54,525 nucleotides of DNA, taken from NCBI GenBank assembly GCA_002505585.1, contig DAVM01000020.1, positions 1 to 54,525 of the forward strand, given 5' to 3'. The notes below the pieces were generated by a model. It had not been told where the DNA came from. It saw only the letters and a list, made by a program, of their open reading frames with translations, and did no database searches. Shown in pieces: positions 10,568-54,525 of the stretch. The position numbers and the translations under genes were made by a program. Source of the stretch: Candidatus Woesearchaeota archaeon UBA489. Lineage in GTDB: Archaea > Nanobdellota > Nanobdellia > SCGC-AAA011-G17 > UBA489. Within the stretch, counting starts at the first letter, position 1. Each line of letters opens with the position of its first letter.

Positions 10568-11191
10568 ATGACTAAGTTATTAAGAGATTTGGGAATTGCT
10601 GCAATTGCTGCAATAGCTGGCTTAGGAATAGCTTATGCAATAACTCGTGCGCCTAAAAACCCAGTTAAACAACCTTCTTCAATTCAAGAAATCCTTACAG
10701 AAAATCCAACTCCTCAAGTTCAAGAACCTGTTGGTAACTTCACTCCTACTCGCATTCACCAAGCTCATGATTATAGGGCTGGACGAACAGCAAATGTTGA
10801 CGAAATTGTTTTACATACTACTGAGGGAACTCCTCTTGGTGCTGAAACATGGTTAACTTCTGCAAGTGGATTAGAAGTAAGTGCTCATTATTTAGTTTGG
10901 CCAAATGGAGATATTGTACAAATGGTTAATCCTGCCGATACAGCTTGGCATGTTCGTGGACATAATGCAAGATCTGTTGGTATTGAAATAGCTGGATATT
11001 TTAACAGACCTATTACTAATCAACAAGTAACAAGAACTGCTGAACTTGTTTCTCATTTGTTAAATCAATATGATTTACAACCAACTGCAATTCGTGCACA
11101 TTCACAACTTGATCCTTCAAGAAGAAGAGATCCTGGAACTGAAAATTTTAATCGTGTCATCACAGCAGTTAACCAAGATAGAAATCGTTAA
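10568..11191 (+). CDS. Membrane-anchored N-acetylmuramoyl-L-alanine amidase (Amidase_2/AmpD/PGRP fold)
   Basis: IVLHTT (H83), SAHYLV, AWHV, SVGIEIAG (E140), IRAHS (H178), RRDPG (D188); N-terminal hydrophobic helix and Pro/Gln-rich linker. Confidence 0.9.
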   Translation: MTKLLRDLGIAAIAAIAGLGIAYAITRAPKNPVKQPSSIQEILTENPTPQVQEPVGNFTPTRIHQAHDYRAGRTANVDEIVLHTTEGTPLGAETWLTSASGLEVSAHYLVWPNGDIVQMVNPADTAWHVRGHNARSVGIEIAGYFNRPITNQQVTRTAELVSHLLNQYDLQPTAIRAHSQLDPSRRRDPGTENFNRVITAVNQDRNR

Positions 11192-11838
11192 AACTTTTTT
11201 AAATCTCCGTTCTTAGGAATAATGTTATGTTCTGGTTTAAACACATAAGTGTGATTATGATCAAAGTATCCACATCTAAAGTTTTCTAATGGTATTCCTG
11301 TTCTTATGCTTAACATGATTGCATAAAAATATACTTGTGTTGATGCATATTTTTCTTTATGTGCATTAGGTTTGTAATCCCATATCCAAATATGTCCATT
11401 TTCTATTCTTACTAAGTCTATATGTCCTGATAAGGTTTCTTCACTATTAAAAATTGTTTTGTACCCTTCTAATTCTTTTGCATGCAACCAAATAGGAACT
11501 TCCATTGCAATAGTATTGCTATCATTCTCTAGCATAAACACTTGCACTTTTGAATGTGCATCTTTATATCTTTCTTTATTAGTTTCTAATCCCCATCCTG
11601 CTAAACTTGCTACTTCATGTCCTTGCACATAACTAACATCAAAAGGAACTTTAAACTTTAGTGCACTACTCCTTGGCCCTCCATTATTAAAATGATTATC
11701 TGGACAGTCATGGAAGACTTCTTGCATATATTTGTGCAACCCATCAAATCCATTACAGAGCTCTTGTATCTTCTTTTCGTGTACTCTATAACAATAAAAT
11801 CCACCGCTATGATTGAGAACTGTTTGACTTATCACCAC
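11188..11838 (-). CDS. PD-(D/E)XK nuclease (RecB-like motif set)
   Basis: AMEVP...GHIDLV...WDYKP...QVYFYA, matching E, D, DxK and QxxxY motifs. Confidence 0.8.
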   Translation of the reverse strand: MVISQTVLNHSGGFYCYRVHEKKIQELCNGFDGLHKYMQEVFHDCPDNHFNNGGPRSSALKFKVPFDVSYVQGHEVASLAGWGLETNKERYKDAHSKVQVFMLENDSNTIAMEVPIWLHAKELEGYKTIFNSEETLSGHIDLVRIENGHIWIWDYKPNAHKEKYASTQVYFYAIMLSIRTGIPLENFRCGYFDHNHTYVFKPEHNIIPKNGDLKKF

Positions 11839-11919
11839 TTTTATTGTTAGTTTTAAAGAAGGGAATATAAGGTTTTCTAAACTGCAGGGTTTATATAGGA
11901 TTATCTTAATTTCTTCAAT

Positions 11920-12873: not shown

Positions 12874-12903
12874 TTTATATACCTCTATTAGTTATTTTTT
12901 CTT

Positions 12904-14714: not shown

Positions 14715-17276
14715 TTTCAACTCTTTCTTATACTTTAATGCACTTGGTGCTTCTCCACCGTGCCAGCTTTTCTTTGGTCTTACCATAAGTGGATAGATTC
14801 TTTCTGAGTTATCGTCTAAAAGTATTGCTGATCCTTTTCTTTTTGGTAGATTATTCAAGTAGGTTTGTAATTCTGTTACTAAGTAGCTTTGCATCATACT
14901 ATTTAATGCTTCTATATCTCTTTTACTTGTGAGTTTATGGCTCAACACTATGTCACTTTGTGTTAGCACATCATGATGTATTTCTCCTGGTTGCTGCGTC
15001 ACTAAACATAAACTTATACCTGGTTGTCTTCCTTCTCTTAGTAATTGCACTAATGCATCTGTTGCTGGTGTTTTTCCTGTTTTTGGTAGGAATTCGTGGC
15101 ATTCATCTAGCATAATCCATACTAATGGTTTTTCTTTTATTTTTTCTTCGAAGAAATAACTCTTTCTTTTTCCTATATCTTGTAATTCCTCTACTTTTCT
15201 TGCTTTGATTCTTTCTTCTAATAACTTCCTGCTTATCATCCCTATTACTAGTCCTTTGATGCTCCAATTTCCTGAAACGTTTGTGTAGACGCTTATATCT
15301 AGTACATTTACACTTCCTGGTTGCATGAGTTCTTGTATGCTTGTTCCGTGTTTGTCAAATAATCCCCATTTGTCTGCTGCTAAGAATTTGTTTTCTGTTG
15401 CATCTTTTACTTCTCTTGTTGTTTTTTTGTTTGCTATGATTAATTTAATGATATCTTTTATTGAGTATTCTTTTTTTGTGTCTTGTAAGATTCCTATTAC
15501 TCTCTCTATTAGTATTCCTACTGGTTCTGTTGGTCTTACTTCAAAGACATTGCACCATTCTCCTGCGCTTAGTTCTGATGTCTTCAACGCAAATGCTTTG
15601 TCTACTGGAATCCCTTTCTCTTTTTGTTCTGCGTAGTGTCCTTCTGGGGTGAAGATATTTATGTCAAAGGCTTTTGTTTTTAATCCCCATTTTGTTACTA
15701 AGTCTTCTTGTCTAGTGTTTGGATATTTCATTGTCCAGAATACTCCTAGTGTGTCAAAGAATAACACTGTTATGTTTTGCTTTACGTCATCTGGTAGTTC
15801 TGCTATTTCTTCTGCTATTACTGATGCACTGTAACTGTTGTGGATAAGAATGTCATTTGCTACAAAATTGTGGAATTTTGGAACACTAATATCATAGACT
15901 TCTGTTTCTTTTTCTATAGCTTCAAGACTTGTAATCTCATCCCAGAAAATATCTGATTGTGCTAAGAGTGTTATTGAGTTGTTTTGATCTGCTTTTGCAA
16001 CTTGTAGTAATGTTTGTCTAGATGGGGCATATTTTATTCTTTCTCGCATTGCTTTTGGATGTGCATAACCTGCTACTCTACCAACTTCTGCCCAATTTTT
16101 TGGTCTATAAGTTTCCCAGAGTTCTTTAGGAATGGTATCAACATTAGGATTTCTAACAATATTTTCTATTTCTTTAAGGCATTGTTGGCTTTTCTTCTTT
16201 TTTTCTGGGTGAAAGAACCCTATCTCTTTAATATATTTGGTTATGTTATCTGATCCGATGATTATTTCATAACTAACGAATTTTTTCCCATCTAGTTTTA
16301 TGTTTTTTGTTCTAATTCTTGAAAGAATGCCAAAACGTAATAAGAGGTGGTGTACTTGGTGTATTAAGATTTTTGAAGATGAGCTATAATCTATCTCCCA
16401 CCCACTTCTATTACTGTTGTAGTAAATACTCCCATCACAACTAAAAAGCCTATCAAGGAACACTCTTAAAAAATCTTTTTCTAGTTGCAGTATTCCTGGT
16501 GGGATAAATTTCTTTGGAGCAAGCTTTCCTTGTATTTTTAAGTCAATTAACCAATCTTTCACATAGTTATTTTTCTTTCCATGTGGATTATCTTTTCTGC
16601 TAATACGATAAGAACTTGATTTTCCATGCAGATCTATTTTTAAATCTTCATCAAATTGTTTTACTGTTTCTTCAAATTCTTCTAAAATTGTTTTATCTTC
16701 ATTACTAAAGAGAACATAGTGTCCTTTTGTGTGTCCTTCTGCTATTAAATATGCAAGAAGTTTTAATTTGTGTATATCCATTTTTCCTTTTCCAAAGTTA
16801 TCAATTTTTCTTGGCGTTCCTATTCTACTCCCTATTGTTAATTCTTCAACAGGTTTCCAACCTTTTATTGTTAATAAAGGATGTTCTGGTGTGAGTGTTA
16901 TTTCTTTTCCACTTCTTAACTTTACTTTTAAAACTCTATTAACTTTACGTTTAAAGAACTCATCTTTTTTCAAAGGGACAACTTTCAATTGATCATTTAA
17001 TCCCATAATTTTTTCATTTCTTTGTTCAAGTTCTTTAATCGGACAAACAGTTCCATCAGCTAAAGTAATAAGTGTGTCTCCTACAACACACTTTCCGCTT
17101 CCTCTTTTTCCTGCTATTAAGACTACATGTGTTCTTGCTACATCCATCATGATGTTATTACTCAAAGAAGTTGTTTGTCCCATAGTCACGAAAAGCTTTC
17201 CTAAGTTGATTGTGCCATGTTCACCGAACTTTTCTTTGTCTGCTTTATTCCTTCCAACTACTATATTGTATGCCAT
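14703..17276 (-). CDS. HerA/FtsK-like (DUF87) ATPase precursor containing an intein; 439 aa after splicing
   Basis: Walker A GKRGSGK|S split by the intein; FFDTLG, Walker B MLDECHEF, LLREGRQPG, VTQQP. Confidence 0.88.
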   Translation of the reverse strand: MAYNIVVGRNKADKEKFGEHGTINLGKLFVTMGQTTSLSNNIMMDVARTHVVLIAGKRGSGKCVVGDTLITLADGTVCPIKELEQRNEKIMGLNDQLKVVPLKKDEFFKRKVNRVLKVKLRSGKEITLTPEHPLLTIKGWKPVEELTIGSRIGTPRKIDNFGKGKMDIHKLKLLAYLIAEGHTKGHYVLFSNEDKTILEEFEETVKQFDEDLKIDLHGKSSSYRISRKDNPHGKKNNYVKDWLIDLKIQGKLAPKKFIPPGILQLEKDFLRVFLDRLFSCDGSIYYNSNRSGWEIDYSSSSKILIHQVHHLLLRFGILSRIRTKNIKLDGKKFVSYEIIIGSDNITKYIKEIGFFHPEKKKKSQQCLKEIENIVRNPNVDTIPKELWETYRPKNWAEVGRVAGYAHPKAMRERIKYAPSRQTLLQVAKADQNNSITLLAQSDIFWDEITSLEAIEKETEVYDISVPKFHNFVANDILIHNSYSASVIAEEIAELPDDVKQNITVLFFDTLGVFWTMKYPNTRQEDLVTKWGLKTKAFDINIFTPEGHYAEQKEKGIPVDKAFALKTSELSAGEWCNVFEVRPTEPVGILIERVIGILQDTKKEYSIKDIIKLIIANKKTTREVKDATENKFLAADKWGLFDKHGTSIQELMQPGSVNVLDISVYTNVSGNWSIKGLVIGMISRKLLEERIKARKVEELQDIGKRKSYFFEEKIKEKPLVWIMLDECHEFLPKTGKTPATDALVQLLREGRQPGISLCLVTQQPGEIHHDVLTQSDIVLSHKLTSKRDIEALNSMMQSYLVTELQTYLNNLPKRKGSAILLDDNSERIYPLMVRPKKSWHGGEAPSALKYKKELKLNF
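15837..17090 (-). mobile_element. Intein with LAGLIDADG homing endonuclease (418 aa, precursor residues 63-480)
   Basis: Starts CVVGDT (block A), has TPEHP (block B), LLAYLIAEG and FLDRLFSCDG (DOD motifs), ends VYDISV...HNFVANDILIHN followed by Ser. Confidence 0.95.
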
Positions 17277-18376: not shown

Positions 18377-19213
18377 ATGTTTAATCAATTCAAAACAATT
18401 ATTTTATTAGGTGTTTTAACAGGTATCTTGCTCTTAATTGGACAAGTGGTTGGGGGTACTTCTGGGTTAACTATTGCTTTTCTTTTTGCTATTATCATGA
18501 ATGTTGGTTCTTATTGGTTTTCTGATAAGATTGTTTTACGTATGTATCGGGCTAAGGAAGTTTCTAAAGTTCAAGCTCCTAAAATTCATGCTATGGTTGA
18601 AGATATTTGTAAAAAAGCTCATTTACCTAAACCTAAAATTTATATTGTTCCTACTGATAATGCTAATGCTTTTGCAACTGGTCGTAATCCTCAAAATGCA
18701 GCGATTGCTTTTACTGAGGGAATTTTGCGTTTGTTAAGTGAAAAAGAATTGAAAGGTGTTGCTGCTCATGAGCTTGCGCATGTGAAGAACCGTGATACTT
18801 TAATTTCTACTATTGCTGCTACTATTGCTTCTGTTATTTCTTATATTGCTTTTATGGCTCGTTTTGCTGCTATTTTTGGTGGTCGTGATAATGAAGGTAT
18901 GGGAAATATTTTAGAATTGTTGTTGTTAGCTATTGTTGCTCCTATTGCTGCTGTTATTATTCAATTAGCTATTTCTCGTAGTCGTGAGTATTTAGCTGAT
19001 CAAAGTGGTGCTTCTTACTTAAAAGATGGTAGTGGCTTAGCTTCTGCGTTAGAAAAGTTGCATTCTCACAAAACACCTATGCGTTTAGGTAATCCTTCTT
19101 CTTCGCATTTAATGATTGCTAATAATTTTTCTGGAAGGGCTTTGTTGAGTTTGTTTTCTACTCATCCTAATCATAATGATAGGATTTCAAAATTAAAGAG
19201 TTTGAAGTTTTAA
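18377..19213 (+). CDS. htpX: Membrane zinc metalloprotease HtpX
   Basis: NAFATGRNP, AHELAH, SRSREYLAD, FSTHP. Confidence 0.95.
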   Translation: MFNQFKTIILLGVLTGILLLIGQVVGGTSGLTIAFLFAIIMNVGSYWFSDKIVLRMYRAKEVSKVQAPKIHAMVEDICKKAHLPKPKIYIVPTDNANAFATGRNPQNAAIAFTEGILRLLSEKELKGVAAHELAHVKNRDTLISTIAATIASVISYIAFMARFAAIFGGRDNEGMGNILELLLLAIVAPIAAVIIQLAISRSREYLADQSGASYLKDGSGLASALEKLHSHKTPMRLGNPSSSHLMIANNFSGRALLSLFSTHPNHNDRISKLKSLKF

Positions 19214-26444: not shown

Positions 26445-26501
26445 CCTTTGGAGTGTTGGTGAAGTGCTATATGATAAAATTTGAAATGGAGAAAACCTAA
26501 G

Positions 26502-33421: not shown

Positions 33422-33469
33422 GGTATTTAAACAAGATTTGTCTTTCTATTTCAGGAAAAGTTGGTGATA

Positions 33470-42861: not shown

Positions 42862-42862
42862 A

Positions 42863-45800
42863 ATGAGGCAAGTTTTTGGAAAAAGAGAGAGAGCTGTATT
42901 CATTATTCTACTTATGTTCTTTTTACCTATGCAACAAGTTGTTGCTCAGCGTTCTTCTGAGTTTGAAAATTTAAAAGAGCGAACTAAAAACATTCCTCAG
43001 GATTTTAGGGATCAGGCTGAAGTTATTGGTGGACAATTAAATGACCGTTTTGATTCTGGTGTCCCTGGTGAGCTTGGTACTATTGGTGAGGATATTATTT
43101 TGCAAGTGAAGGAATATCAGCCTAAGATTATTCGTTCTTCTTTGTTGGAAGATCAGGGTGTGTTCGTGTATGCTTTATTAAGTGGTCAACCTACTAATCC
43201 TACTATTAGTATTCCTAATATTAAGAATGTTGTTATTCGGAGACAGAAGGTTACTACAAATCCTGTTGGTGCTCCTGTTTCTATTGGTCGTGTTCGTCAC
43301 ATTAAGCCTTCTCGTGCTGAGTTGAGTTTTGATAATATGGGGTATATGGTTATTCCTATTCGCCAGATTCCTAGGGAGAATGATGTTCCTGATGAGGTGC
43401 TTGTTGATGTTGATGCACGTATCTTTTTTGATGTTTCTGAGGGGTTAACTTTTGGTCCTACTAAGGATATTTTGGTTGAACAAAATAAGGATCAGTGGGC
43501 TTTAACTAAGGAGGATCATAGTTTTTATGCTGGGTTTATTCGTGTGTCTGAAATTTCTGATATTGGTGCTACTGTTGCTTTGTATGATAATAATGTGAAT
43601 GAAGTTCGTGGTTCTCCTATAGAATTAAAGGTTGGTCAAACTTCTCGTTCTTTGAGTGCTAGGTCTGAGTTTGGGTATTCTCGTACTGGGAAGATTTTTG
43701 ATAGATTTAATTTGAAGCTTGATCGTATTACTGCTTTGAGTGATAAGGCTCGTTTGATTATTTCTCGTGATGGTAAGGTTGAGACTAGGACTTTGTCTGA
43801 GGGTGAATTTTTGTATCCTGGTTCTAGTTGGTTTATTGAAAATATTATCACTGATGTTCGTGGTGAGGAGTTTACTGTTAAGTTGCGTAATCGTAATAGT
43901 TTTGGTGCATTTGGTGGTTCTGCTTCTAAGAAGTTGGCTTGTACTGATTTTTGTGAATTAAAGGCTAAGAAGTTAAAGATTAATGCTTCTTTGCCTCCTG
44001 TTCCTGCTAAAAAGCCTAAGACTGCTGTTCCTCAAGATAAAAGTCTTGTTGCTTATAAAAATATTAAAGAGAAGGAGTATGATAAGGTTGTTATTGATTT
44101 AGGTAAGGGGTTTAAGGATTATTCTAGTGTTGTAAAAAATTTGGAAAAGTTAAGAAAAGCTACTAGTCCTCTGACTTCTTTAGCTACTAAGAATTTGATT
44201 GATAATTTGTTGAAAACCATTCAGAGAGAGTATAATGCTAAACGTGTTGAAAGACAGTTGGCTATTAATCGTGATAATCATTCTATCATTACTAAAGATG
44301 TTGAAGTTATGTATGAATATATGCTTAAATTAAACCAAAAACTTGCTGGAGATAAAACTCGTTTGCCTTCTGCTCAAAAAACTGATGCTTCTGCTACTGG
44401 TTTGATTGCTTATCAGCAGGCTAGAGAAGAGTACCAAAAAGTTATTGATGGATTTACTTCTTCTAAAGATCTTGAAATTAGGAAGCATGTTGCTAAAGCT
44501 CATTGGCGTATTGCTAATTTGCCTGGTGATATTGTTAGTAAAGATTCTAGAATTCAGCATTTAGATGTTTTGCTTAATAATTTTGAAGTTATTGAGTATG
44601 ATGGGTTTACTAAACAAAATTTGGAAATCTTGTTGAAGATTTTAAAGTCTTTGCAACTTGATTACCAAAGTGTTAGTCAAGAGCTTTCTGAGCCTTCTAC
44701 TGGGGAAATTTTTTCTGTTTTGTTGGCTGGTGCTGAAAAGGCTTCTGCTAAGTTGAAGTCTCGTGCTACTTTAACTTTGGATGGTGCTAGGACTAATACT
44801 TATATTGAAGGCGAACCTCTCTTGTGGCCTGAGACTGGTTCTCCTGGTTCTATTAGGTGGAATGTTAAAGAGATTAATACAAGGAGTGTTATTATTGCTC
44901 GTGCTGATAGTGGAGAAACTATTAGAATTAATTTAAATGCTGAGGTTGATAAAGTTCCTATTTTGCCTGGTGCTGGTAATGTTCGTAAAGTTAAGTTGAT
45001 TGATACTGATGTAAAAAAAGAGGCTCATGTTACTATTAGTCCTGTTGTTGAGAGTGCTTATTCTGAGGCTATTTTTAGTTTGCATCTTCCTATTGAAAAG
45101 CGTGCTTTTGATTTGCCTCTTTTTTCTGATACTGTTGAGGAAGAGATTGTTAAGACTGAGGATTTATTGGAAGATTTGAATGAAATTGTAGAGAATGTTC
45201 GTGAGATTACTGAGTATTGGCAAAAGATTTGTTTGGTTACTTTTGGTGTGTTGTGGGCTAAAAACTTTTTAGCTGGTGCTTTTGGTAAAGGTAATGCTGC
45301 TGATGCTAGACAAAAGGTTGGTTCTATGTATAAAGAAAAGTATGCTCATTGTCAGACTCTTGATCGTTCTGATCCTGAGAGTTGTGCTGGTAAGACTTAT
45401 GAGCAGTTTGTTTTCAGTAAGCAAGCAGAGTATGAAACTGCTATTGAGCAATCTTCTAAGATTACTGAAGGTATTCAGAACTTAGAAAGTAGTGGGTATT
45501 ATACTAAACAAGAAAATTTTCCTGAATTAGGTAAAGAGTATAATGGTGCTAAGGCTGAGTTGTATTATTATGAAGAGATGAGTAAATTGCATCCTAATGA
45601 TGAGACTACTAAGACTAAGGTTTTGACTTTGAGGTCGCAGTTAAAGCATTCTGATTTAGAACGGCAGTTTTCTGATGTGTATTTTGAGGATGGTCGGTTA
45701 AAGACTTTTGATGAGTTAGGGTCTAATGCTAAAGGTATTGTAGGAGCTACTATAAATTACCCTGGATTAAAGCCTGCTCGTGATGAGTTGATTAGTAAGT

Positions 45801-48800
45801 TGTCTGATGCTGAAAAGGTAAAAATTGCTGAAGCTACTAAGAATGGTATTTTTGAACAACATGTTTGGAATACTCATGGTAAAAAATTAATTCCTTATTA
45901 CAAGGAATCTATTGTGAAACAACAGCTTGGTACTTATATTACTACTGATTTGAAAAAACAATATAGTGTTGAACAAAAGCATCTTGATAATTTATTTGAA
46001 GCTCATCGTATTAAAAATGTTGATAGTGCTTTGGTTGGTAATTTCAAGCATGCTCCTAGTTTGTCTTTTGCTACTAAGGGTAAGGGGAAAGATAATGTTG
46101 AGTTTGTTTCTATTGATGCTTTGCATTATGTGCAAGTTTCTTATCGTACTGGTGGTCGTGTTGAAAAGTATGAATTGTTCCGTCGTTCTTCTCCTAATAG
46201 TCAGATGGGTCATAGGAGTGATGTATATTTAGGTGTTGTTGATGAACAATTGTTAACTAATTATCGGAAGTCTGGCACTGATGATCATAAGTCTCTTTCC
46301 AAAAATTTGGATAATGTTCGTAGTTGTATTAGTCGTATTAATAAACAGAATAGTAAGACTAAATATTCTAGGTCTGATAAAGTGCAGACTAAACCTATTG
46401 GTTGTTCTGGTTTGGGTAATTATGTTGTTAAGAATTCTGTGCAAGGTTCTGATAGGAGTTGTACTGATTTCATGAGTCCTTCTGATTGTAAATTGTTATT
46501 CAATGCTTGTGATCCTGTTATTTGTCCTACTTCTCGTTGTAATCTTGGCGGTGATTGGCCTGTTGAGAATGTTGCTGAGACTGGTATTATTGGTAGTGCT
46601 TTGCTTTGTTTGCCTAACTTTATTGGTGTTGATAAGGATGCTGGGGTAGTTATGCCTGTTTGTTTAACTGGTATTCATGCTGGATTACAAAATATTCGTT
46701 CTATTATTGAAGGCTACCGTCAGTGTTTGATTACTGCTAAGGTTTCTGGTCGTTCTGTTGGTATTTGTGATCGTATACGTTCTTTTGGTATTTGTGAAGT
46801 GTTGTGGAAGGAGGGTATGGCTCTTGTGAGTGCTAAGGAAGGTATTTTAGGTAAGTTGATTGGTGCTTTAAGTGATGATGATGGCAGTGGTGCTTCTGGT
46901 GGTGGTGAATATTCTGCTTTCCAAGATACTTTGGATAATAGTGCTGAGAGTTTGAAGTTCTTTACTCAGTCTTATGCTAAGAATACTTTTGCTCGTTACT
47001 CTGGTGGTTCTCTTCCAGAAATTGGTACTGAGATTTGTAAGGCTGCTATTTTTAGGAAGGCTCCTGGTGTTGGTAATTTCTTTGATGAAGTTACTCGTCC
47101 TGAAAGTCCTCCTCAGTTTAATGCTTTCTTTGATGAAGTTCCTTATTCTGATATTGGTGAGCGTTCTTTGAGTCAGTATAAAATCTTTTATCATGTGTAT
47201 GCTGGTGAGACTAGTGGTGTTTCTCCTGTGACTTATAGTGTTTGGTTGCAGTCTAAGGATCCTTATACTAATGAGTTTATTTATCCTCCTCAGTTTTTGC
47301 GTGATTCTCGTGGTATTGTTCGTGGTCGTCGTTTGCCTTCTGGTGGTTTTGCTAGTGAGGCTCCTGATATGATTTTACCTACTGGTATGCAAGAAATTTG
47401 TGTTGAGATTGTTACTGACACTTATGGTCGTCGTGTTGAGTGTGGTTTTGGTAAGGTTTCTACTGGTTTTGCTTTGAATTATGTTACTGATAAATTTACT
47501 CAGGGTGAATTAAATAAAAAGATTAATAGTGCTAGTGAATGTGTTTCTAAATCTTCTACTATTGCTGATGCTGTTTCTGAGCGTGGTTTAGTTGCTGGTG
47601 TTGGTGTTGGTGTTGTTGGTACTGTTTCTAGTGGTTTTACTTCTACTGGTATTGTTAGAAAGTGTTCTAAGGTTTCTCCTGGTATTGGCGGTGATGAGGC
47701 TAAGTGGAGTCCTGTTGGTAGTTGTGGTATTGATGATCTTGATCGTGATATGGGTACTTGTTGGTTGTATGTCCCTACTGCTCAAAATTTGATTAAACAA
47801 GTTAGTGCTCGTACGCAATTCCAAAACACTTTGAATGAAACTGCTCGTCGTGTTATTGCAGAGGCTGAAAAGGCTGGTAGTCCTATTCCTGGTTTTGAGG
47901 TGTTAGAGAAAAAAGAGATTCAGACTTTGTTTGATCTTGCTAAGACTGCTCGTGAGGATGCTATTAAAACTAATGATGTTGCTAAGTTTGTTCCTGCTAG
48001 GAAGAATTATAACAAAATTAGAAGTGCTTATGCTGTTGATGAAAAGTTTGGTGCTAATGCTCAGTTCTTTTTGGCTGAGACTTATTGGGAGGAAGCTCGT
48101 ATTTTAATTGCTACTAATAGTTTGGTTAATGCTGCTGCTGCAACTATTAAGTCTATGCGTGGTGTTAGAAGAATTACTTTACCTCATCCTCCTGTGCCTA
48201 TGGCAAAGAATTCGATGGTTGAAATTGAAATTTTTGGTACTGTGCATAAGTTTGAAGTTAAGAGCATGAGTGGTGGGAAGATTACTTTAGAAGTGCGTTC
48301 TACTCCTCAAGAGTTCTTGTTGAAACAAAAAGATAAAGCTATTGAGGTTGATGTGAATGGGGATAGAAAGCCTGATATTACTATACAGTATGTTAAAGAT
48401 AAAGCTTTGAATGCTCCTGGACTTGGTGAGGTTGTTGCTGGCATGGTTTGGTTTAAAGAAATAAAAGCAAGTACTCCTGCTCCTAAAGTTCCTAAAGTTC
48501 CAAAGGATCCTAAAGACCCAAAAGATCCTACACCTAGTACTTCTGGAAAAAAGTGTACTTCTAATGGTTTTTGGGCTGATAGTGCAGGCAAACGTTTACC
48601 TACAAAATCTGGTTCTAGTCCTGAAGTTGCTACTGGCACTCCTGTTGCTATTGTAGTGAATGCAATTAATTGTAATGGGAAAACTTTGAAGGTTGGTATT
48701 GAAGAGAACGATGATTATTTTGATGAATCAGTTAGTGGTTTTCCTAAAGAGATAAAGATTGATGCTGATGGTACTGTAACAAAATTGGTTCCTTGGACTA

Positions 48801-51085
48801 CTGAATATTTGGATGATGGTTGGTTTGGTGGTAATCCTGAATTTATTTTTAGGATTTTTTATGGTGAGGAAGAGTTATTTAAGTTACTTGATAGGTATGA
48901 ATTAGTTGTTACAAAGAATAAATATACTGGACCTCTTGCTCCTTCAATAAAACCAGTTATTAAAAGTATTACTCCTTCTATTTTGTTGGATGGTGAGCCT
49001 GCTGTTGTAGAGATAGTTGGAGAGAATTTTGACAAAAATGTTCAAGTGTTTTATCCTACGGTTTCTAAACCAGATCTTATGCATTTGAGAAAAGATAGAG
49101 AAGTAATTTGGGTGTCTGATAAATTATTAAAAGTTGATTTAACAAAGAGTCTTCCTCTTCCTGGCTGGCATTTTAGTTTACTTGTAAGAAATCCTGATAA
49201 ACAGGTGAGTAATCTAGAACCTGTTACTGTATTGCCTAAAGGGATTTTGTTTGTTGTTATGAAGGAGGATGCAAGTACTCCTTCTGGTTTTGAGGCGGAC
49301 ATTCGTGTGGTTAATCCTGATACTGGAAGAAATTATCGTATTCAGACAGCAAAATCTTCTTCTTGGGTTAATTGGGTTGATGATCTTGTTGAACATAATG
49401 GTAGAATTTATGGAGCTATGAGGCCGAACGTTATTCCTGGGACTGTTTCAGAAATTTTTGATATGTTTAGTGATGATCGTGCTGCTAGGCGTGATAGTTC
49501 AACATTTGCTTTAGTGTCTCATGATGGTGAGTTATATGATGCTGGTTTGTATGGTTTTAAGGAAACGTTTGGGAGTGGTTCTATTAGTGGCATGGAGGTT
49601 TATGATATGGTTTCCAATGATGGTAAGTTTTATGCTGCTACAACTACTGGTATTTTTGCAAAGAGTGGTGTTCCTACTAGTGGTAATCTTAAATATCTAT
49701 ATTATATGGTATCTGGTGAAGTGCATACTTTAACAGCGCATAAGGATAAAATTTACTATAGTGAAGGATTTGATATTTTTGTAGATGATGAGCCTATTCC
49801 TCTAAAGAGTAGGGCTGATGAATTAATTGCTTTAGTGTCTTATAATGGTAAATTGTATGATGTAAGTGATAAAATAAGGAACACTGAAACTGATCAGGTT
49901 GTTTTTGATCCTGTTGGTAAGGAAATTTCTGCTGCTTTGTCTTTAGAGAAGCTTTCAAAAGTTGTAGCTCCTTTACCTTCTCCAACCCCTCCAACTCCCG
50001 CTCCTATAACACCATCTCCTAGTGCTACTAAAGAACATGCTTGGGCTTGGTATTATAATGCTAAAAAGTATGAAGTTAAGGTTGATATTCCTGCTGCTTT
50101 AACTGAACGATATTATAAATTAAAGCCACATCCTACTGGTGAGATTGGTGGTGATTACACACCTTATGTGTTGGATTCAGATGATGATGTTGTTATTCGT
50201 GGTATTGCTAGACAAATTTTGGAGATTGCTAACGCTGAAAACATGGATGATTGGCAAAAGTTCTTTTTAGTTTCTTCTTTTGTTAAAGGAAACTTTGCGT
50301 ACCAATTAGATGCTGTTTCCGCTATGTGTTCTGAATATCCTCGTTATCCTTTGGAAATGATTTTGAGTGCTCGTGATAATAAGTTAGGTATTGGTGATTG
50401 TGAGGATGCTGCTATTTTAACTGCTGCTTTGTTGAAAGAATTAGGCTATGATATTTCTATGGTAGTTTTAGGCCCTGTAAAACCTGGTGATGGTGCTCAT
50501 GCTTCTCTTGCTGTGAAGTGTGATGCTCCTTTCCCTCCTGCACATTTTAAGGTTCCTCCTCTTGCTTGGGATTTTGCTGGAAAAAAGTATTGTTATTATG
50601 AAGCGGTTGTTTATTCAAATACTTGTTTAACTGAGTACAAATCTCGTTTCCCTAGTTTGACTGATCTTGGAGCTTATGCTGCTCCTTGTCAATTGAAAAT
50701 TGGGGAGATTTTTGCTGATTTTGCTCGTGAGCTTGATTTAACTAATCCTGAATTAGCACGATTAGTAAGCCCGAAAGCATATCTAAAATCTATTTCAGCC
50801 AATCTTAAATCTGACGGTACTTTTGAGCTTACAATAAAAAACACTGGCTCTGTGATTGCTAAAAATGTTTGGATAAACAAGATCTTTGGAGTAGATGCAA
50901 CTGGTACTCCTACCACTACTCCTCGGAATTCTGCTAAGGTTGATATTCCTGCTGGAGAAGAAAGAAAGCTTGTTATTGGTTTTTCTTCTGCTGAAATTGA
51001 TGTGTTGAAGGCTGCTACCAAAACACGTGTTTTTATTGATGCTGATAATGCGAAAATGTTTCTAGCAGGCTTTAATTTTACTTAA
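42863..51085 (+). CDS. Giant (2740 aa) secreted modular protein: Cys-rich core, IPT/TIG-like domain, beta-propeller-like repeats, transglutaminase-like domain
   Basis: Signal peptide; Cys cluster near 46320-46800; PVIKSITP..VEIVGENF; five LVxHxGxLY-type repeats; YPRYPLE...GDCEDAAILTAALL...HASLAV...YYE. Confidence 0.8.
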   Translation: MRQVFGKRERAVFIILLMFFLPMQQVVAQRSSEFENLKERTKNIPQDFRDQAEVIGGQLNDRFDSGVPGELGTIGEDIILQVKEYQPKIIRSSLLEDQGVFVYALLSGQPTNPTISIPNIKNVVIRRQKVTTNPVGAPVSIGRVRHIKPSRAELSFDNMGYMVIPIRQIPRENDVPDEVLVDVDARIFFDVSEGLTFGPTKDILVEQNKDQWALTKEDHSFYAGFIRVSEISDIGATVALYDNNVNEVRGSPIELKVGQTSRSLSARSEFGYSRTGKIFDRFNLKLDRITALSDKARLIISRDGKVETRTLSEGEFLYPGSSWFIENIITDVRGEEFTVKLRNRNSFGAFGGSASKKLACTDFCELKAKKLKINASLPPVPAKKPKTAVPQDKSLVAYKNIKEKEYDKVVIDLGKGFKDYSSVVKNLEKLRKATSPLTSLATKNLIDNLLKTIQREYNAKRVERQLAINRDNHSIITKDVEVMYEYMLKLNQKLAGDKTRLPSAQKTDASATGLIAYQQAREEYQKVIDGFTSSKDLEIRKHVAKAHWRIANLPGDIVSKDSRIQHLDVLLNNFEVIEYDGFTKQNLEILLKILKSLQLDYQSVSQELSEPSTGEIFSVLLAGAEKASAKLKSRATLTLDGARTNTYIEGEPLLWPETGSPGSIRWNVKEINTRSVIIARADSGETIRINLNAEVDKVPILPGAGNVRKVKLIDTDVKKEAHVTISPVVESAYSEAIFSLHLPIEKRAFDLPLFSDTVEEEIVKTEDLLEDLNEIVENVREITEYWQKICLVTFGVLWAKNFLAGAFGKGNAADARQKVGSMYKEKYAHCQTLDRSDPESCAGKTYEQFVFSKQAEYETAIEQSSKITEGIQNLESSGYYTKQENFPELGKEYNGAKAELYYYEEMSKLHPNDETTKTKVLTLRSQLKHSDLERQFSDVYFEDGRLKTFDELGSNAKGIVGATINYPGLKPARDELISKLSDAEKVKIAEATKNGIFEQHVWNTHGKKLIPYYKESIVKQQLGTYITTDLKKQYSVEQKHLDNLFEAHRIKNVDSALVGNFKHAPSLSFATKGKGKDNVEFVSIDALHYVQVSYRTGGRVEKYELFRRSSPNSQMGHRSDVYLGVVDEQLLTNYRKSGTDDHKSLSKNLDNVRSCISRINKQNSKTKYSRSDKVQTKPIGCSGLGNYVVKNSVQGSDRSCTDFMSPSDCKLLFNACDPVICPTSRCNLGGDWPVENVAETGIIGSALLCLPNFIGVDKDAGVVMPVCLTGIHAGLQNIRSIIEGYRQCLITAKVSGRSVGICDRIRSFGICEVLWKEGMALVSAKEGILGKLIGALSDDDGSGASGGGEYSAFQDTLDNSAESLKFFTQSYAKNTFARYSGGSLPEIGTEICKAAIFRKAPGVGNFFDEVTRPESPPQFNAFFDEVPYSDIGERSLSQYKIFYHVYAGETSGVSPVTYSVWLQSKDPYTNEFIYPPQFLRDSRGIVRGRRLPSGGFASEAPDMILPTGMQEICVEIVTDTYGRRVECGFGKVSTGFALNYVTDKFTQGELNKKINSASECVSKSSTIADAVSERGLVAGVGVGVVGTVSSGFTSTGIVRKCSKVSPGIGGDEAKWSPVGSCGIDDLDRDMGTCWLYVPTAQNLIKQVSARTQFQNTLNETARRVIAEAEKAGSPIPGFEVLEKKEIQTLFDLAKTAREDAIKTNDVAKFVPARKNYNKIRSAYAVDEKFGANAQFFLAETYWEEARILIATNSLVNAAAATIKSMRGVRRITLPHPPVPMAKNSMVEIEIFGTVHKFEVKSMSGGKITLEVRSTPQEFLLKQKDKAIEVDVNGDRKPDITIQYVKDKALNAPGLGEVVAGMVWFKEIKASTPAPKVPKVPKDPKDPKDPTPSTSGKKCTSNGFWADSAGKRLPTKSGSSPEVATGTPVAIVVNAINCNGKTLKVGIEENDDYFDESVSGFPKEIKIDADGTVTKLVPWTTEYLDDGWFGGNPEFIFRIFYGEEELFKLLDRYELVVTKNKYTGPLAPSIKPVIKSITPSILLDGEPAVVEIVGENFDKNVQVFYPTVSKPDLMHLRKDREVIWVSDKLLKVDLTKSLPLPGWHFSLLVRNPDKQVSNLEPVTVLPKGILFVVMKEDASTPSGFEADIRVVNPDTGRNYRIQTAKSSSWVNWVDDLVEHNGRIYGAMRPNVIPGTVSEIFDMFSDDRAARRDSSTFALVSHDGELYDAGLYGFKETFGSGSISGMEVYDMVSNDGKFYAATTTGIFAKSGVPTSGNLKYLYYMVSGEVHTLTAHKDKIYYSEGFDIFVDDEPIPLKSRADELIALVSYNGKLYDVSDKIRNTETDQVVFDPVGKEISAALSLEKLSKVVAPLPSPTPPTPAPITPSPSATKEHAWAWYYNAKKYEVKVDIPAALTERYYKLKPHPTGEIGGDYTPYVLDSDDDVVIRGIARQILEIANAENMDDWQKFFLVSSFVKGNFAYQLDAVSAMCSEYPRYPLEMILSARDNKLGIGDCEDAAILTAALLKELGYDISMVVLGPVKPGDGAHASLAVKCDAPFPPAHFKVPPLAWDFAGKKYCYYEAVVYSNTCLTEYKSRFPSLTDLGAYAAPCQLKIGEIFADFARELDLTNPELARLVSPKAYLKSISANLKSDGTFELTIKNTGSVIAKNVWINKIFGVDATGTPTTTPRNSAKVDIPAGEERKLVIGFSSAEIDVLKAATKTRVFIDADNAKMFLAGFNFT
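48482..48529 (+). repeat. 9-bp tandem repeat encoding PKV-PKV-PKD-PKD-PKD-P linker
   Basis: cctaaagtt cctaaagtt ccaaaggat cctaaagac ccaaaagat cct. Confidence 0.85.
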
Positions 51086-51887: not shown

Positions 51888-51888
51888 C

Positions 51889-51972
51889 TGCGGGAACTAG
51901 GACTCGAACCTAGGTAAGCACTAAGCTACTGGGTCCTAAACCCAGCCCGTTTGACCACTCCGGCATTCCCGC
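51889..51972 (-). tRNA. tRNA-Leu(UAG)
   Basis: Reverse complement GCGGGAA...CTGGG-TT-TAG-GA-CCCAG, long variable arm, TTCGAGT T loop, TTCCCGC-A; 84 nt. Confidence 0.95.
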
Positions 51973-52079: not shown

Positions 52080-52087
52080 TTTATAAA
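52080..52087 (+). promoter_or_regulatory. TATA box of the putative immunity gene
   Basis: AGGAAGC-TTTATAAA ending 23 nt before ATG 52110. Confidence 0.6.
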
Positions 52088-52109
52088 GGGTCTGTAGACT
52101 CTTATATCT

Positions 52110-52442
52110 ATGAATAGCAAATATAAAGCAAGATTTGAAGGTTATACAGCAAGTATTAATTGGCCTGATCCAACTAAACCTAATCCAAATAGTGAAGCAG
52201 CAGATGTTACATTATCTACTCTAGATGGTAGAAAACTAACAGCAAATTTTGTTACTAAGCCTTTCCTTGATTATGTGTTTAGTAAAAATAGTAGAACAGG
52301 AGAATGTGCTTCTGGAACATATTTTTGTATGAAAGATGGTATGATTGTTGTTGAAAAAATTACTGAAAGGACAGTGAAAGCAACTATTGATGATTTAATA
52401 AATAATTATGAAGTTGACTTTCATTTTAAAGAAATTAAATAA
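52110..52442 (+). CDS. Putative polymorphic-toxin immunity protein
   Basis: 110 aa; ADVTLSTLDGRKLTANFVT...TGECASGTYFCMKDGMIVV...IDDLI resembles, from recall, small proteins encoded beside bacterial RHS/LXG toxins; abuts the toxin gene. Confidence 0.6.
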   Translation: MNSKYKARFEGYTASINWPDPTKPNPNSEAADVTLSTLDGRKLTANFVTKPFLDYVFSKNSRTGECASGTYFCMKDGMIVVEKITERTVKATIDDLINNYEVDFHFKEIK

Positions 52443-52445
52443 CTA

Positions 52446-54525
52446 TTACTCTTCATAAATCTCTTGTAATTTATTCATAACTTTATCTTGGTTCGTATCC
52501 TTACCAGATTTTCCAACAATTTCGTAACTAGTTTCGCCAGTTTTGCGATAATAAAGGCGAGCACCATTTCTCCCTCGTAAGTAAAAAATATCTGTTTCTT
52601 TTATATGTCCTGGTTTGCCTAATCCTGCTTCAAAATTTCCTTTTAGTAATTCTTCTGTTAGATGATTCATTTCTCTTTGGATTGCTCCACTTCTAGTTGC
52701 TTCTTCAGCTAAAGAAACAAGGCGCTTATCTTTTTTAATATTGCTGGTTAAAGTAATTTTGTTCAGTGAAGGAGCTGTTTTTGGTGCAGATGAAACAGGA
52801 CTTGCTGCTATTTTTTCTTTTGGGAAAACATAATCCATTACCTCTTGAGGTGATCCACGGCGTACAACATCTCCCTGTACAACAAACATATCATCTACTA
52901 TTTCTCTTCCAGCTTGCTCGTCTAATATAAGAAGTTGCTCTAATTCTTTTCTTGTGGTAATCGTTTGAATCCCTCGATTTCCCCAGCCAACGTCATAAGT
53001 AAAAGCAATTTTCCCATCTGGAGAGATTTCTAAAGCATTACCAGTAGTTGTTCTATGATATTTTGCAAGTTCTTCTGATCCTTTTGCATAGATATTTAGC
53101 TTTTGAAAAGCTTCTAGAGATCTTGGACTAGCTGCTATTAGTTGGGGAATAGTCTCAGGTTGTCCTGCAACTTTTCTTGGCAGTGTCCCTTCAGGTAATG
53201 GTGTTGATCCATAAAATCCTCCATCGATGTATTCTTCTAAATCATAGGCTGTTGTTTTTGCTGGTGAACTTCCAGTTTTTTGTATTAAGGTTAAAGTATC
53301 ACTGCCTTCTTCTAAAATGACATAAGTATATCCTCCAGGGCTTCCTTCTGTTGCTGGATACATGATTTTTTCTATTTTGATTCTTGTCCTTGGTCCACTC
53401 GGTGATGGTATCTCTATCCAATTTTGTCTATATTCTAAAGCGCTTATATCTCCACTAGTTCTTCCCCAACTAGGATAGGGTGTTGCAACACTTGTGCGTA
53501 GAATGTCTTCTGGAGTTTTTGCATCTTTTAATTCTTGAAGTTGAGTTTTTGTTCTTGCAATAAGTTCTGTTTGTTTCTTAACCACTTCACTTTTAAGTGC
53601 TTCATCAAAAACTGCTTTTTTGGAGATTTTGCTTATCTTTTTTCTAGTATCCTCAGATAGAGAACTACTATATCTCAAACCATTTGAAGAATCTTCAAGA
53701 AACTCCTCAAGGATTTCTCTTGGAGTTAATTTCCCGCCAGTTTTGCTGTTATATTTTGGGAAAGATATGCCAGTTTCATAGCTTAATTTCTGTCTTGCGG
53801 AAACCATTTGAGCTTCTGTTCCTCCATCCAGAGCTGCTCTTGCTTTTTGTCTTGCTTTTTCTATGCTAAGAAAGAAAGGAGTGTCACTGACAAATTCTAG
53901 ATTTTGTTGTAGGGCTCTTTTCCTTTGTTTTTTAAGTTTAGACAAGTCCATATGTGCTATTCCTTTTGGATCAAAAGTAGTTAAGATTTCTTTAAAAGGG
54001 TGTAGTGGATGAGTATGAGATGTTATCCTATTTCCTGTTGTTTGTGTTTTTGGCAGTGATAAAACAGTTCCTGGGCTACTAAATTCTTGAGCATTTTGTA
54101 TTCTTTTGGCTAACGAAATAACTTCTTCGTCAGTAAGTTCTTTTAATGGTTTGTTTATGCCCATTGCAGGTAAATTCAGATTAGAGAGGTAATCTTTTTT
54201 TAAAATAGAAATTTGTTCTTTTAAATTTTTAGAGGAAGTGGTCAATAGTTCAGGTTCTAAGCTTCCAGGTTGTGTTTTCGTAAATCCTTTAGTTTTAGTT
54301 AAATCTTCTACTCTTTTTTGGTAATGAACAATTTGAGTACTTGTTTCTTTTAAATTTCCTTGAAATCCTTCTGGTAAACTTCTTTTATCTTGAAGGTAAA
54401 TAACTCTTTCTTCTTTAGGAACTATTTGTGTTGGTTGTTCTATGATTGTAACACTTCCATCAGGATTTCTTTTTATTGTTGTAGGAATAATGCCTCCAAT
54501 CTCTACTTCTCCAGCTCTTGCTCCT
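52446..54525 (-). CDS. Partial large protein (5' end outside window) with C-terminal RelE/HigB-like toxin domain
   Basis: Frame checked by hand and open from 54245 to the window edge (...RAGEVEIGGIIPTTIKRNPDG...). After the linker SPVSSAPKTAPS: LLKGNFEAGLG...IFYLRGRNGARLYYR...YEIVGKSGKDTNQDKVMNKL. Confidence 0.78.
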   Translation of the reverse strand, partial: GARAGEVEIGGIIPTTIKRNPDGSVTIIEQPTQIVPKEERVIYLQDKRSLPEGFQGNLKETSTQIVHYQKRVEDLTKTKGFTKTQPGSLEPELLTTSSKNLKEQISILKKDYLSNLNLPAMGINKPLKELTDEEVISLAKRIQNAQEFSSPGTVLSLPKTQTTGNRITSHTHPLHPFKEILTTFDPKGIAHMDLSKLKKQRKRALQQNLEFVSDTPFFLSIEKARQKARAALDGGTEAQMVSARQKLSYETGISFPKYNSKTGGKLTPREILEEFLEDSSNGLRYSSSLSEDTRKKISKISKKAVFDEALKSEVVKKQTELIARTKTQLQELKDAKTPEDILRTSVATPYPSWGRTSGDISALEYRQNWIEIPSPSGPRTRIKIEKIMYPATEGSPGGYTYVILEEGSDTLTLIQKTGSSPAKTTAYDLEEYIDGGFYGSTPLPEGTLPRKVAGQPETIPQLIAASPRSLEAFQKLNIYAKGSEELAKYHRTTTGNALEISPDGKIAFTYDVGWGNRGIQTITTRKELEQLLILDEQAGREIVDDMFVVQGDVVRRGSPQEVMDYVFPKEKIAASPVSSAPKTAPSLNKITLTSNIKKDKRLVSLAEEATRSGAIQREMNHLTEELLKGNFEAGLGKPGHIKETDIFYLRGRNGARLYYRKTGETSYEIVGKSGKDTNQDKVMNKLQEIYEE

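Follow-up and report, generated by a model that had tools for sequence, protein, structure and literature searches.

The stretch of DNA analysed here, which we call the window, comprises the 54,525 nucleotides of contig DAVM01000020.1 from Candidatus Woesearchaeota archaeon UBA489 (assembly GCA_002505585.1). It encodes a wall amidase, a toxin/immunity pair, a giant secreted protein, a protein with a pilin-type signal, a HerA/FtsK-like ATPase and a PrsA-like foldase, which the original prediction, made from the sequence alone, had joined into one dispersed anti-bacterial toolkit. We consider it probable instead that the window holds three unrelated layers, interleaved with genes of replication and translation and acquired and inherited separately. 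The first would consist of vertically inherited core and envelope-maintenance genes (the intein-bearing ATPase, the PrsA-like parvulin and an HtpX-like protease), the second of one recent acquisition, a membrane-anchored Amidase_2 enzyme of bacterial or phage type, and the third of two convergent modules, each with a class-III-signal protein and a giant, apparently Sec-exported protein. Little is known of the ways in which DPANN archaea attach to other cells, exploit them or fight them, and the Woesearchaeota have no cultured host–symbiont pair. The locus supplies molecules that can be tested, namely a RelE-fold toxin with its immunity protein, an operon with swappable tips and an amidase predicted to face outward. 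Gene lists drawn from one window overstate linkage, and half of the proposed toolkit is conserved housekeeping.

The window is a normal piece of chromosome from a marine, Woesearchaeota-type DPANN archaeon, because the DNA runs in which the region occurs come from marine or seawater metagenomes and because the nearest named relatives of its conserved genes are metagenome-assembled genomes (MAGs) of 'Candidatus Woesearchaeota', Nanoarchaeia and Pacearchaeota. Its G+C content is about 33%, and it is crowded with archaeal information-processing genes (TBP, MCM, the small and large subunits of RFC, and RPA-like OB proteins), alongside Topo VI A and B, Fen1, IleRS, SerRS, eIF1A, eIF2-beta, Cdc48, Sua5 and Trm5/Tyw2. 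A scan of the window for bacterial-type promoters and terminators, together with Rfam, turned up only two tRNAs. An identical copy of the 2740-residue giant protein is found on contigs of a Tara Oceans marine assembly and in the NCBI MAG GCA_002506165.1. Contig L012 differs from the window at 1 position across an overlap of 21,663 nt (L-numbers denote related loci or contigs and P-numbers homologous proteins, as labelled in this analysis). Read depth in two marine metagenomes is even over the two giant-protein modules, which we term A and B; coordinates are collected in Table 1.

Module A is a four-gene operon that is conserved in at least five lineages of the Woesearchaeota type. It recurs in L008 (a contig of 909 kb), in L009/L010 and in L129, and in L011 with no fourth gene called. 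All four products are orthologous wherever four genes are called, and the module lies downstream of Topo VI in L008, L009 and the window. The genes are tightly packed: the first overlaps the start of the second by 4 nt, the gene for the giant protein (giant-1) follows the second after a single nucleotide (base 42862), and the fourth begins 4 nt after giant-1. The pilin-signal protein and giant-1, which had been listed as not belonging to one operon, are thus adjoining members of one. In L008 the first gene is 89% identical at the protein level, the three envelope proteins 38–54% and Topo VI 83–91%. The 64-residue product of gene 1 (69% identical in L009 and 77% in L129) has only sub-threshold winged-helix matches and, judged from these, is a probable regulator of the operon. 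None of the three module A proteins tested matches a PADLOC model.

The second product, a protein of 657 residues, occupies the same operon position in L008, L009 and L129 (54%, 46% and 40% identity) and has no Pfam or NCBIfam match. Its N-terminal text, MRRGQVAAFTILGLVVVAIF, contains an archaeal class III (prepilin-like) signal in which cleavage would fall between MRRG and QVAAFTILGLVVVAIF. This is the pattern M(K/R)(K/R)G, with cleavage before Q and about 20 hydrophobic residues thereafter (by inspection). The motif is kept in the L008 and L009 orthologues and in a paralogue of 256 residues described below, so the pilin-type signal of the original prediction holds up. Class III signals also tether archaeal surface proteins that are not pilins, for example the sugar-binding proteins of Sulfolobus. 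We propose that the 657-residue protein is a membrane- or fibre-tethered partner of giant-1.

Giant-1 consists of a signal peptide and a conserved body, residues 1 to about 1750 (window 42863–48112), followed by a variable part from about residue 1750 to 2740. Within the body, residues about 1190–1640 form a cysteine-rich domain in which many of the cysteines are invariant, in keeping with an extracellular location. Twelve homologues of 1876–2782 residues were found. Most align over residues 1 to about 1750, the three most distant and P0075 over parts of the body only, and beyond the body the homologues diverge completely. Pfam recognises TIG, LRR, TPR, HMA and DUF553 domains in the tips, each in one member. 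These alignments describe a family in which one conserved body carries unrelated, apparently exchangeable C-terminal tips. We note also a conserved hydrophobic segment, ICLVTFGVLWAKNFLAGAF, at residues 789–807 (window 45227–45283) of this otherwise soluble exoprotein; with its invariant C790, K800 and N801, it could be a transmembrane (TM) helix or a membrane-active segment.

The tip of giant-1 in the window (residues 2376–2701) was assigned to a transglutaminase-like or papain-like cysteine protease. The giant secreted protein itself stands, at 2740 residues and with a conserved body; the protease or transglutaminase nature of its tip is plausible but borderline on the DUF553 scores given below. 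The candidate catalytic residues are Cys2513, His2546 and possibly Glu2580, the third being unsure. The tip is common only to giant-1 and P0076, and both Cys2513 and His2546 are conserved between them. Lectin- and IPT-like segments also lie within the variable part. The motif G-x-C-x-D-A with a downstream His resembles that of PeiW/PeiP and of DUF553, Transglut_core and BTLCP/LapG proteases; unlike PeiW/PeiP, the tip matches at or below threshold and has no pseudomurein-binding repeat. The fourth gene of the operon encodes a polytopic membrane protein of 265 residues, with orthologues in L008, L009 and L129 (38%, 33% and 26% identity). It is not an immunity protein specific to the tip, because it is conserved with the operon whatever the tip.

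A tRNA-Leu gene forms the boundary between module A and the island that holds module B, which lies between this tRNA and the genes for L37e, LSM and S8e. In L008 the same tRNA-Leu follows module A and is succeeded by a small open reading frame (ORF), LSM and S8e; in L009, where no tRNA is called, a Bro-N gene stands at the corresponding position. Because module B is missing at the matching site in both, we regard it as an accessory island at a variable spot. Its giant protein, giant-2, has a frame that is open to the window's last base, and the gene runs about 3.6 kb past the window end. The whole gene, seen in L012, encodes 1906 residues, with a signal-peptide-like N-terminus, MKKITTIILVLLLNIGLVQA (by inspection and hydropathy), and no other predicted TM segment. 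The ORF of 599 residues (52446–54245, minus strand, TTG start) that had been taken as a complete, stand-alone toxin gene is a fragment of this gene, and a word-indexed homologue search and searches of Pfam, NCBIfam and PDB sequences with the fragment were all empty. No known trafficking domain was found in giant-2. Upstream of it in L012, outside the window, are a 99-residue gene and the gene for a class-III-signal protein of 256 residues, whose N-terminus reads KGKRG followed by QLTAIILIGLVIFIL. The first 220 or so residues of this protein are homologous to the 657-residue protein of module A (E 2e-20). As the two partners are paralogous, the genome holds two convergent modules, each consisting of a class-III-signal protein and a giant exoprotein.

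The last 106 residues of giant-2 (1801–1906) form the toxin domain. An exhaustive phmmer search of 1.84 billion representatives returned 448 proteins, 105 of them at E <= 1e-10, with all matches restricted to the last 105 or so residues. Among the matches listed, the domain is nearly always the C-terminal end of the subject, the exception being P0115, of 4731 residues. The subjects include ALF-repeat + PT-HINT + domain, RHS + PT-HINT + domain and RHS + domain architectures, and in those with PT-HINT the domain begins a few residues past the 'VLVHN' end of the HINT module. This position after PT-HINT and RHS modules is a signature, and we therefore identify the domain as the C-terminal domain of a polymorphic toxin. 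By sequence, it matches nothing in Pfam, NCBIfam, PADLOC or the PDB, even at E 10, and a profile search of the PDB with the family gave chance-level matches only; the RelE/ParE fold is therefore seen only through structure prediction. The AlphaFold2 model, made from a 32-sequence alignment, is confident (predicted local distance difference test, pLDDT, 94.7; predicted template modelling score, pTM, 0.88). With one exception the top 40 or so Foldseek matches are YafQ, YoeB, RelE, HigB or ParE proteins, at probabilities of 0.66–1.0 and TM-scores of 0.5–0.65, with E-values of only 3e-3 to 1e-1. The modelled domain has the RelE/ParE fold, with two helices leading into an antiparallel sheet and a C-terminal helix. 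In the same alignment G43, R70, K89 and Y104 are invariant and R64 nearly so. RelE-type RNases carry their catalytic residues in the sheet and the C-terminal helix part of the fold. R64, R70, K89 and Y104 lie in these parts of the domain, a likeness at the level of fold regions only, and the domain would be compatible with an mRNA endonuclease of the RelE/YoeB type. The toxin family most commonly takes the form of a protein of about 170 residues, and 47 of the 95 members of 130–260 residues have two predicted N-terminal TM helices. Several loci (L096 3713–4237 and L098–L108, of 27–44% G+C) pair such a toxin-domain ORF of about 170 residues with a convergent immunity gene.

The 110-residue protein is encoded on the opposite strand, tail-to-tail with the toxin gene across a gap of 3 nt. 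The two closest homologues of the toxin domain, proteins of 737 and 174 residues, have quite different N-terminal parts, and each adjoins, again tail-to-tail, a gene of about 108 codons related to that of the 110-residue protein (37% identity, E 3e-27, in L095; 50%, E 7e-38, in L096). In the bacterial-type RHS locus L097, the co-directional gene immediately downstream is 33% identical to it (E 5e-13). A profile built from four proteins retrieved 31 further metagenomic loci, and in 21 of the 31 the immunity gene has an ORF with a terminal toxin domain no more than 71 nt away. Because the family adjoins the toxin domain in so many independent loci, we take the pair to be real and the 110-residue protein to be, on this homology, the cognate immunity protein. 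The toxin/immunity label thus survives. Of the 11 loci with the closest immunity relatives (at least 43% identity), 9 hold a toxin-domain ORF, all tail-to-tail; the distant loci (30–40% identity) contribute 12 pairs, all in the canonical downstream arrangement. The convergent orientation is atypical of polymorphic toxin systems, and the two tail-to-tail loci checked, L096 and L104, have archaeal neighbours (PolD DP2 and DTD2). Tandem immunity paralogues occur as three copies in L125 (18–1444) and five in L128 (2947–5329), the latter array downstream of a toxin-domain gene. No helix-turn-helix or ribbon-helix-helix DNA-binding domain is detectable in the immunity protein, which matches no Pfam or PADLOC model and is not encoded as an upstream, co-transcribed antitoxin.

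Taken together, the modules suggest a mechanism for the third layer. The giants would be exported and held at the cell surface through their pilin-like partners. On contact, the tip domain would be presented or released to a neighbouring cell; the RelE-like domain would enter the target and arrest translation by cutting mRNA, and the 110-residue protein would guard the producer and its kin. RelE-type enzymes are described as acting on the ribosomes of all domains of life. The need for self-immunity suggests that the toxin is able to harm archaea of the same kind, and for a toxin whose producer needs an immunity gene, archaea or kin are just as suitable targets; of the whole set, only the amidase implies a bacterial one. 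The anti-bacterial action that had been claimed for the whole set is therefore retained for the amidase, while nothing points to bacteria rather than archaea as the target of the toxin or of the transglutaminase-like tip. A more ambitious proposal, which we put forward as tentative and somewhat doubtful, is that the modules are a new platform for contact-dependent display or delivery in DPANN archaea of the Woesearchaeota type: a pilin-like partner with a giant cysteine-rich exoprotein whose tip is exchangeable, an archaeal counterpart of the Rhs/CDI systems that would be directed at hosts or competitors. Across the modules the tips include the RelE-fold toxin with its immunity protein, the transglutaminase-like protease, LRR and TIG binding modules and a part that looks like a TIM-barrel hydrolase (by eye; it has no Pfam match). 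If true, the platform together with the surface amidase could act on bacteria.

Several observations weigh against the layered account. No prepilin peptidase and no pilus-assembly ATPase or platform gene was found in the window or in the flanks of the related loci. The giant-2 body has no detectable relatives, JGI metagenome contigs included, and tip polymorphism is seen in module A only. For the cysteine-rich core of giant-1, AlphaFold2 with a 12-sequence alignment reached a mean pLDDT of 52, and the model was not carried into the fold search. Against a DUF553 cut-off of 20.5 bits, full-length giant-1 scores 19.5 and the isolated tip 22.4, and the tip profile aligns weakly (E 0.12), across the Cys motif, with the pseudomurein endoisopeptidase PeiW (8jx4). 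Signal peptides and class III signals were called by inspection and hydropathy. The region is absent from the RNA runs, and two metatranscriptomes of the sample that holds the DNA gave zero coverage, which is uninformative. Finally, co-occurrence was assessed within about 10 kb of the ATPase, that is, in local neighbourhoods.

One alternative, which we judge unlikely, is that the RelE-fold domain and the 110-residue protein are an intracellular toxin–antitoxin (TA), addiction or abortive-infection pair, and that the giants serve host attachment simply as adhesins or envelope proteins. Type II TA toxins have this fold. The small members of the family, commonly with paired TM helices, would suit this explanation, as would the two archaeal loci and the tail-to-tail partner found there, which is unlike canonical immunity genes; TIG, LRR and TPR domains in the tips of giant-1 homologues are of the binding type. 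Against it, the domain follows PT-HINT and RHS modules directly, with the partner family just downstream and in tandem arrays, all hallmarks of secreted polymorphic toxins. In this genome, moreover, the domain is the C-terminus of a 1906-residue protein whose only predicted TM segment is its N-terminal signal peptide, and its partner has no detectable DNA-binding antitoxin domain. We therefore favour the reading of module B as a secreted toxin with its immunity protein.

Zhang, Aravind and colleagues are said to have described the bacterial polymorphic toxin systems of the Rhs/PT-HINT/CDI type in 2012, and Makarova et al. reportedly treated archaeal polymorphic toxins in mBio in 2019. Archaeal polymorphic toxins have already been discussed and catalogued (PMC6393860). 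Giant-2 shares with the Rhs/PT-HINT/CDI-type systems its C-terminal toxin domain, an apparent N-terminal export signal (by inspection), a long intervening body, an adjacent immunity family and, in some loci, tandem arrays. Unlike them, it carries neither RHS, haemagglutinin, LXG or other known trafficking repeats in its body nor a pre-toxin domain; it comes from a DPANN archaeon, with an immunity gene that converges on the toxin gene instead of following it and an upstream partner that has a class III signal, and neither toxin nor immunity protein matches Pfam. The domain is like RelE and ParE toxins in its predicted fold and the location of its conserved residues, but has no sequence match to their Pfam or PDB members, is fused to a giant secreted protein and has no upstream DNA-binding antitoxin.

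Hamm et al. reportedly described giant SPEARE surface proteins in 2019 (as cited within the SPEARE paper). Such proteins are known from Nanohaloarchaeota (PMC10266531). Like them, the giants described here would be Sec-exported onto a DPANN surface, with a proposed role in meeting another cell. Unlike them (by description), our giants have no detected immunoglobulin or fibronectin arrays and no VirB4/TraG ATPase domain or neighbour; they measure 1.9–2.7 thousand residues rather than about 9 thousand, and have exchangeable tips and a pilin-like partner. Murein hydrolases of Nanoarchaeota and Woesearchaeota with a predatory reading of them, archaeal polymorphic toxins and giant DPANN surface proteins are thus already in print. 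What appears to be new is the operon, conserved in Woesearchaeota, that joins a pilin-like partner to a giant protein whose tips are exchangeable, the RelE-fold toxin family with its immunity family (both without a Pfam match), and the convergent toxin–immunity arrangement of the window and its closest relatives, of which those checked are archaeal.

The amidase, the second layer, is well supported as an N-acetylmuramoyl-L-alanine amidase, as had been predicted: it matches Pfam Amidase_2 with 93 bits (E 2e-26) against a cut-off of 26, its nearest solved structure is AmpD (PDB 1j3g, E 4e-7), and the family alignment keeps H83, H178 and D188, which bind zinc, and the catalytic E140 without exception. 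The enzyme would cut the MurNAc-L-Ala bond of bacterial murein and could open bacterial walls. Its first 30 residues form a hydrophobic anchor, which is followed by a Pro/Gln-rich linker and the catalytic domain (residues 75–190); the PDB alignment begins only at residue 60. Cytoplasmic AmpD is not known to have such an N-terminal anchor, and the natural reading of the layout is a cell-bound enzyme with its catalytic domain facing outward. No cell-wall-binding domain was found with Pfam or in the family alignment. The close homologues are a handful, all with the anchor-plus-catalytic-domain layout, in a small DPANN-type clade. Beyond this clade the nearest relatives are Amidase_2+PG_binding_1 proteins of bacteria, at about 40% identity, and endolysins of phages, at about 34%, and the gene is therefore of bacterial or phage type.

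The distribution of the amidase is that of a recent insertion into a pre-existing housekeeping block. The gene sits between those for MetAP and a PD-(D/E)XK nuclease as a lineage-specific insertion, and of 20 loci that keep both flanking genes, 1 has it. We surveyed ATPase neighbourhoods in a one-genome-per-species collection (172 matching places, of which 80 were kept), and an Amidase_2 homologue lies within 10 kb of the ATPase in only one of the 80 (L040). Intact genes with all catalytic residues are found in three lineages, the window, L001 and L040. The window and L001 share 56% identity in the amidase, and also the order amidase ... ATPase-foldase-M48, an order that follows from the conservation of the housekeeping block. 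Other, more distant amidases of the DPANN type have quite different gene contexts. In L003 (9474–13916) and L005 (199–3426), two small overlapping ORFs are followed by the amidase and a 671-residue protein with no Pfam match.

Archaeal peptidoglycan hydrolases have been described (Strock et al. 2025; PMC12352652), as have murein-degrading genes in Woesearchaeota (PMC9723730). The window amidase resembles them in being of bacterial type, patchy and probably acquired horizontally; it is unlike the published Woesearchaeota cases, in which GH23 lytic transglycosylases are highlighted, in being an Amidase_2 protein with a simple membrane anchor and no wall-binding domain. It is rather improbable, in our assessment, that the amidase is a remnant of viral lysis or an enzyme that scavenges muropeptides for nutrition instead of one used in attack. 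The similarity to phage endolysins, the lack of a cell-wall-binding domain and the small cassette of two tiny overlapping ORFs and a 671-residue protein around its distant DPANN-type homologues point in that direction, but the neighbours in the window are housekeeping genes with no viral genes nearby, the gene is intact in all three lineages, and the N-terminal anchor predicts an outward-facing, cell-bound enzyme.

The ATPase, by contrast with the amidase, belongs to the block itself. Its ORF of 857 codons encodes an extein of 439 residues and a Hint+LAGLIDADG intein of 418 (window 15837–17090, minus strand), which splits the Walker A motif between GKRGSGK and S. Inteins typically reside in such core, DNA-related proteins; the same insertion site is occupied in 3 of the 80 related species (L040, L061 and L090). 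The extein shares 88% identity with the L001 gene, which lacks the intein; in L001, Cdc48 is 87% identical and the amidase and foldase 56%. All 80 kept matches are archaeal, with identities of about 50–72%, mostly across nearly the whole extein. The conserved order is Cdc48, MetAP, PD-(D/E)XK, Fen1, Trm5, ATPase, (PrsA), M48, OB, RFC-L, RFC-S, TRAM and IleRS, and Trm5 is found near the ATPase in 59 of the 80 loci, RFC in 53, Fen1 in 50 and M48 in 42. Given the 172 places, a conservation close to that of Cdc48 and the synteny with a replication/translation block, we judge the ATPase, on these comparisons, to be a lineage-wide core gene of Woesearchaeota-type archaea and no part of a weapon system. 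With Fen1, RFC, SSB and PD-(D/E)XK genes as its neighbours, it is most likely a DNA-handling enzyme. The neighbouring Cas4-like PD-(D/E)XK nuclease (11188–11838, minus strand) is 79% identical to its L001 counterpart and lies near the ATPase in 30 of the 80 neighbourhoods; it may be a functional partner in a NurA-like role.

The ATPase can be placed at the level of the superfamily only, to which extent its HerA/FtsK-like label stands. It resembles HerA, CedD, VirB4 and MADS mad8 in its P-loop core, its Walker A and B motifs and a HerA_C-type C-terminal similarity, but unlike HerA/FtsK ATPases it falls far below the equivalog cut-offs and is a single-copy core gene in a housekeeping block. Matches to the HerA, CedD, FtsK and mad8 models are weak; the NCBIfam HerA model scores 47 bits against a cut-off of 970. 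Similarity to HerA/FtsK proteins is confined to the C-terminal ATPase part; the PADLOC mad8 model aligns over nearly the full length (E 5e-17). It lies outside the HerA equivalog and outside FtsK as defined by TM and gamma domains: no HAS-barrel domain is detectable, no NurA, Mre11 or Rad50 partner gene is present in the window, and the sequence contains no TM segment. A component of a defence system, considered because of the resemblance to PADLOC HerA and mad8, is argued against by the core-gene distribution.

Next to the ATPase lies the foldase, whose PrsA-like identity is borne out by parvulin and SurA_N domains, both above the Pfam cut-offs, though its start is at 17326 and not at 17074 as listed. 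It has an N-terminal TM anchor (residues about 45–65), a SurA_N-like chaperone domain and a parvulin peptidyl-prolyl isomerase domain, and is anchored by the TM segment, without a lipobox. Its match to NCBIfam PRK00059 (E 1e-52) is below cut-off, as are its scores against the PrsA equivalogs. It adjoins the ATPase in 7 of 63 comparable loci, and is a general, patchily distributed helper of secretion and folding. The HtpX-like M48 membrane metalloprotease beside it was absent from the earlier list. We read both as genes of envelope maintenance and quality control, with no evidence for a weapon.

That all six items cooperate as a dispersed toolkit, with attachment through the pilin, breach by the amidase, delivery powered by the ATPase and folding by PrsA, seems to us very unlikely. 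VirB4/TraG-type ATPases belong to the same superfamily as HerA/FtsK. In favour of cooperation, the amidase, the toxin/immunity pair and the giant exoproteins are all real; amidase, ATPase, foldase and M48 protease keep the same order in L001; giant surface proteins of nanohaloarchaea go with VirB4/TraG-type ATPases (PMC10266531); and Woesearchaeota have been proposed to live as predators equipped with murein-degrading enzymes (PMC9723730, PMC12352652). Yet the ATPase stays in the same housekeeping block with or without the amidase or the foldase, it has neither a TM segment nor secretion genes in its neighbourhood and lies 23 kb from the giant genes, the housekeeping block accounts for the L001 synteny, the two closest syntenic relatives examined keep module A but lack module B, and nothing ties the toxin or the transglutaminase-like tip to bacterial rather than archaeal targets. 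Independent, patchy distribution, named beforehand by the original prediction as the outcome that would speak against it, is what the local neighbourhoods show. Functions in conflict or attachment are thus retained for the amidase and the two giant-protein modules, and not for the ATPase and the foldase.

Table 1. Location of the features discussed in the text and the basis on which each was assigned.
Feature	Coordinates	Strand	Basis
N-acetylmuramoyl-L-alanine amidase, Amidase_2, AmpD/T7-lysozyme type, membrane-anchored	10568..11191	+	Pfam, PDB, alignment
HerA/FtsK-superfamily P-loop ATPase, ORF of 857 aa	14703..17276	-	Pfam intein/LAGLIDADG, weak HerA_C
PrsA/PpiD-like extracytoplasmic foldase, 337 aa	17326..18339	+	Pfam Rotamase_3 E 3e-23, SurA_N_3 E 1.5e-14
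HtpX-like M48 membrane metalloprotease	18377..19213	+	Pfam Peptidase_M48 E 6e-39
Module A gene 1, probable regulator, 64 aa	40697..40891	+	sub-threshold winged-helix matches: DUF6293_C E 0.007, MarR, Fe_dep_repress
Module A gene 2, protein with archaeal class III (prepilin-like) signal, 657 aa	40888..42861	+	N-terminus MRRG followed by QVAAFTILGLVVV
Module A gene 3 (giant-1), secreted protein, 2740 aa	42863..51085	+	hydropathy, homologue alignment
Tip of giant-1 (aa 2376-2701), borderline transglutaminase-like/papain-like cysteine-protease domain	49988..50965	+	Pfam DUF553
Module A gene 4, polytopic membrane protein, 265 aa	51090..51887	+	sequence; no family match
tRNA-Leu(TAG), boundary between module A and module B island	51889..51972	-	ARAGORN, Rfam
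Module B immunity protein, 110 aa	52110..52442	+	homology to genes beside toxin-domain homologues
Module B giant-2, C-terminal 693 codons of secreted protein of 1906 aa	52446..54525	-	open frame, L012
Toxin domain of giant-2 (aa 1801-1906)	52449..52766	-	phmmer, AlphaFold2, Foldseek

Four further genes of the window were noted. A secreted protein of 717 residues (26481–28634, plus strand) has no family match of any kind. The product of 25213–26250 (plus strand, 345 residues) combines a signal peptide, a weak CarboxypepD_reg-like domain, a TM segment and a basic C-terminal tail of winged-helix appearance, and may be a membrane-tethered regulator. A free-standing gene resembling LAGLIDADG homing endonucleases (39412–40215, minus strand) lies between Topo VI-A and tRNA-Thr, and L009 has a LAGLIDADG gene of 344 codons at the same place. 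Finally, a secreted protein of 775 residues (33461–35788, plus strand) with no Pfam match carries 'GVDCGGSC' cysteine repeats and a TM anchor, both C-terminal; L008 keeps it at the same site (50% identity), L009 has a similarly sized ORF there, and we regard the protein as a candidate S-layer or envelope protein.

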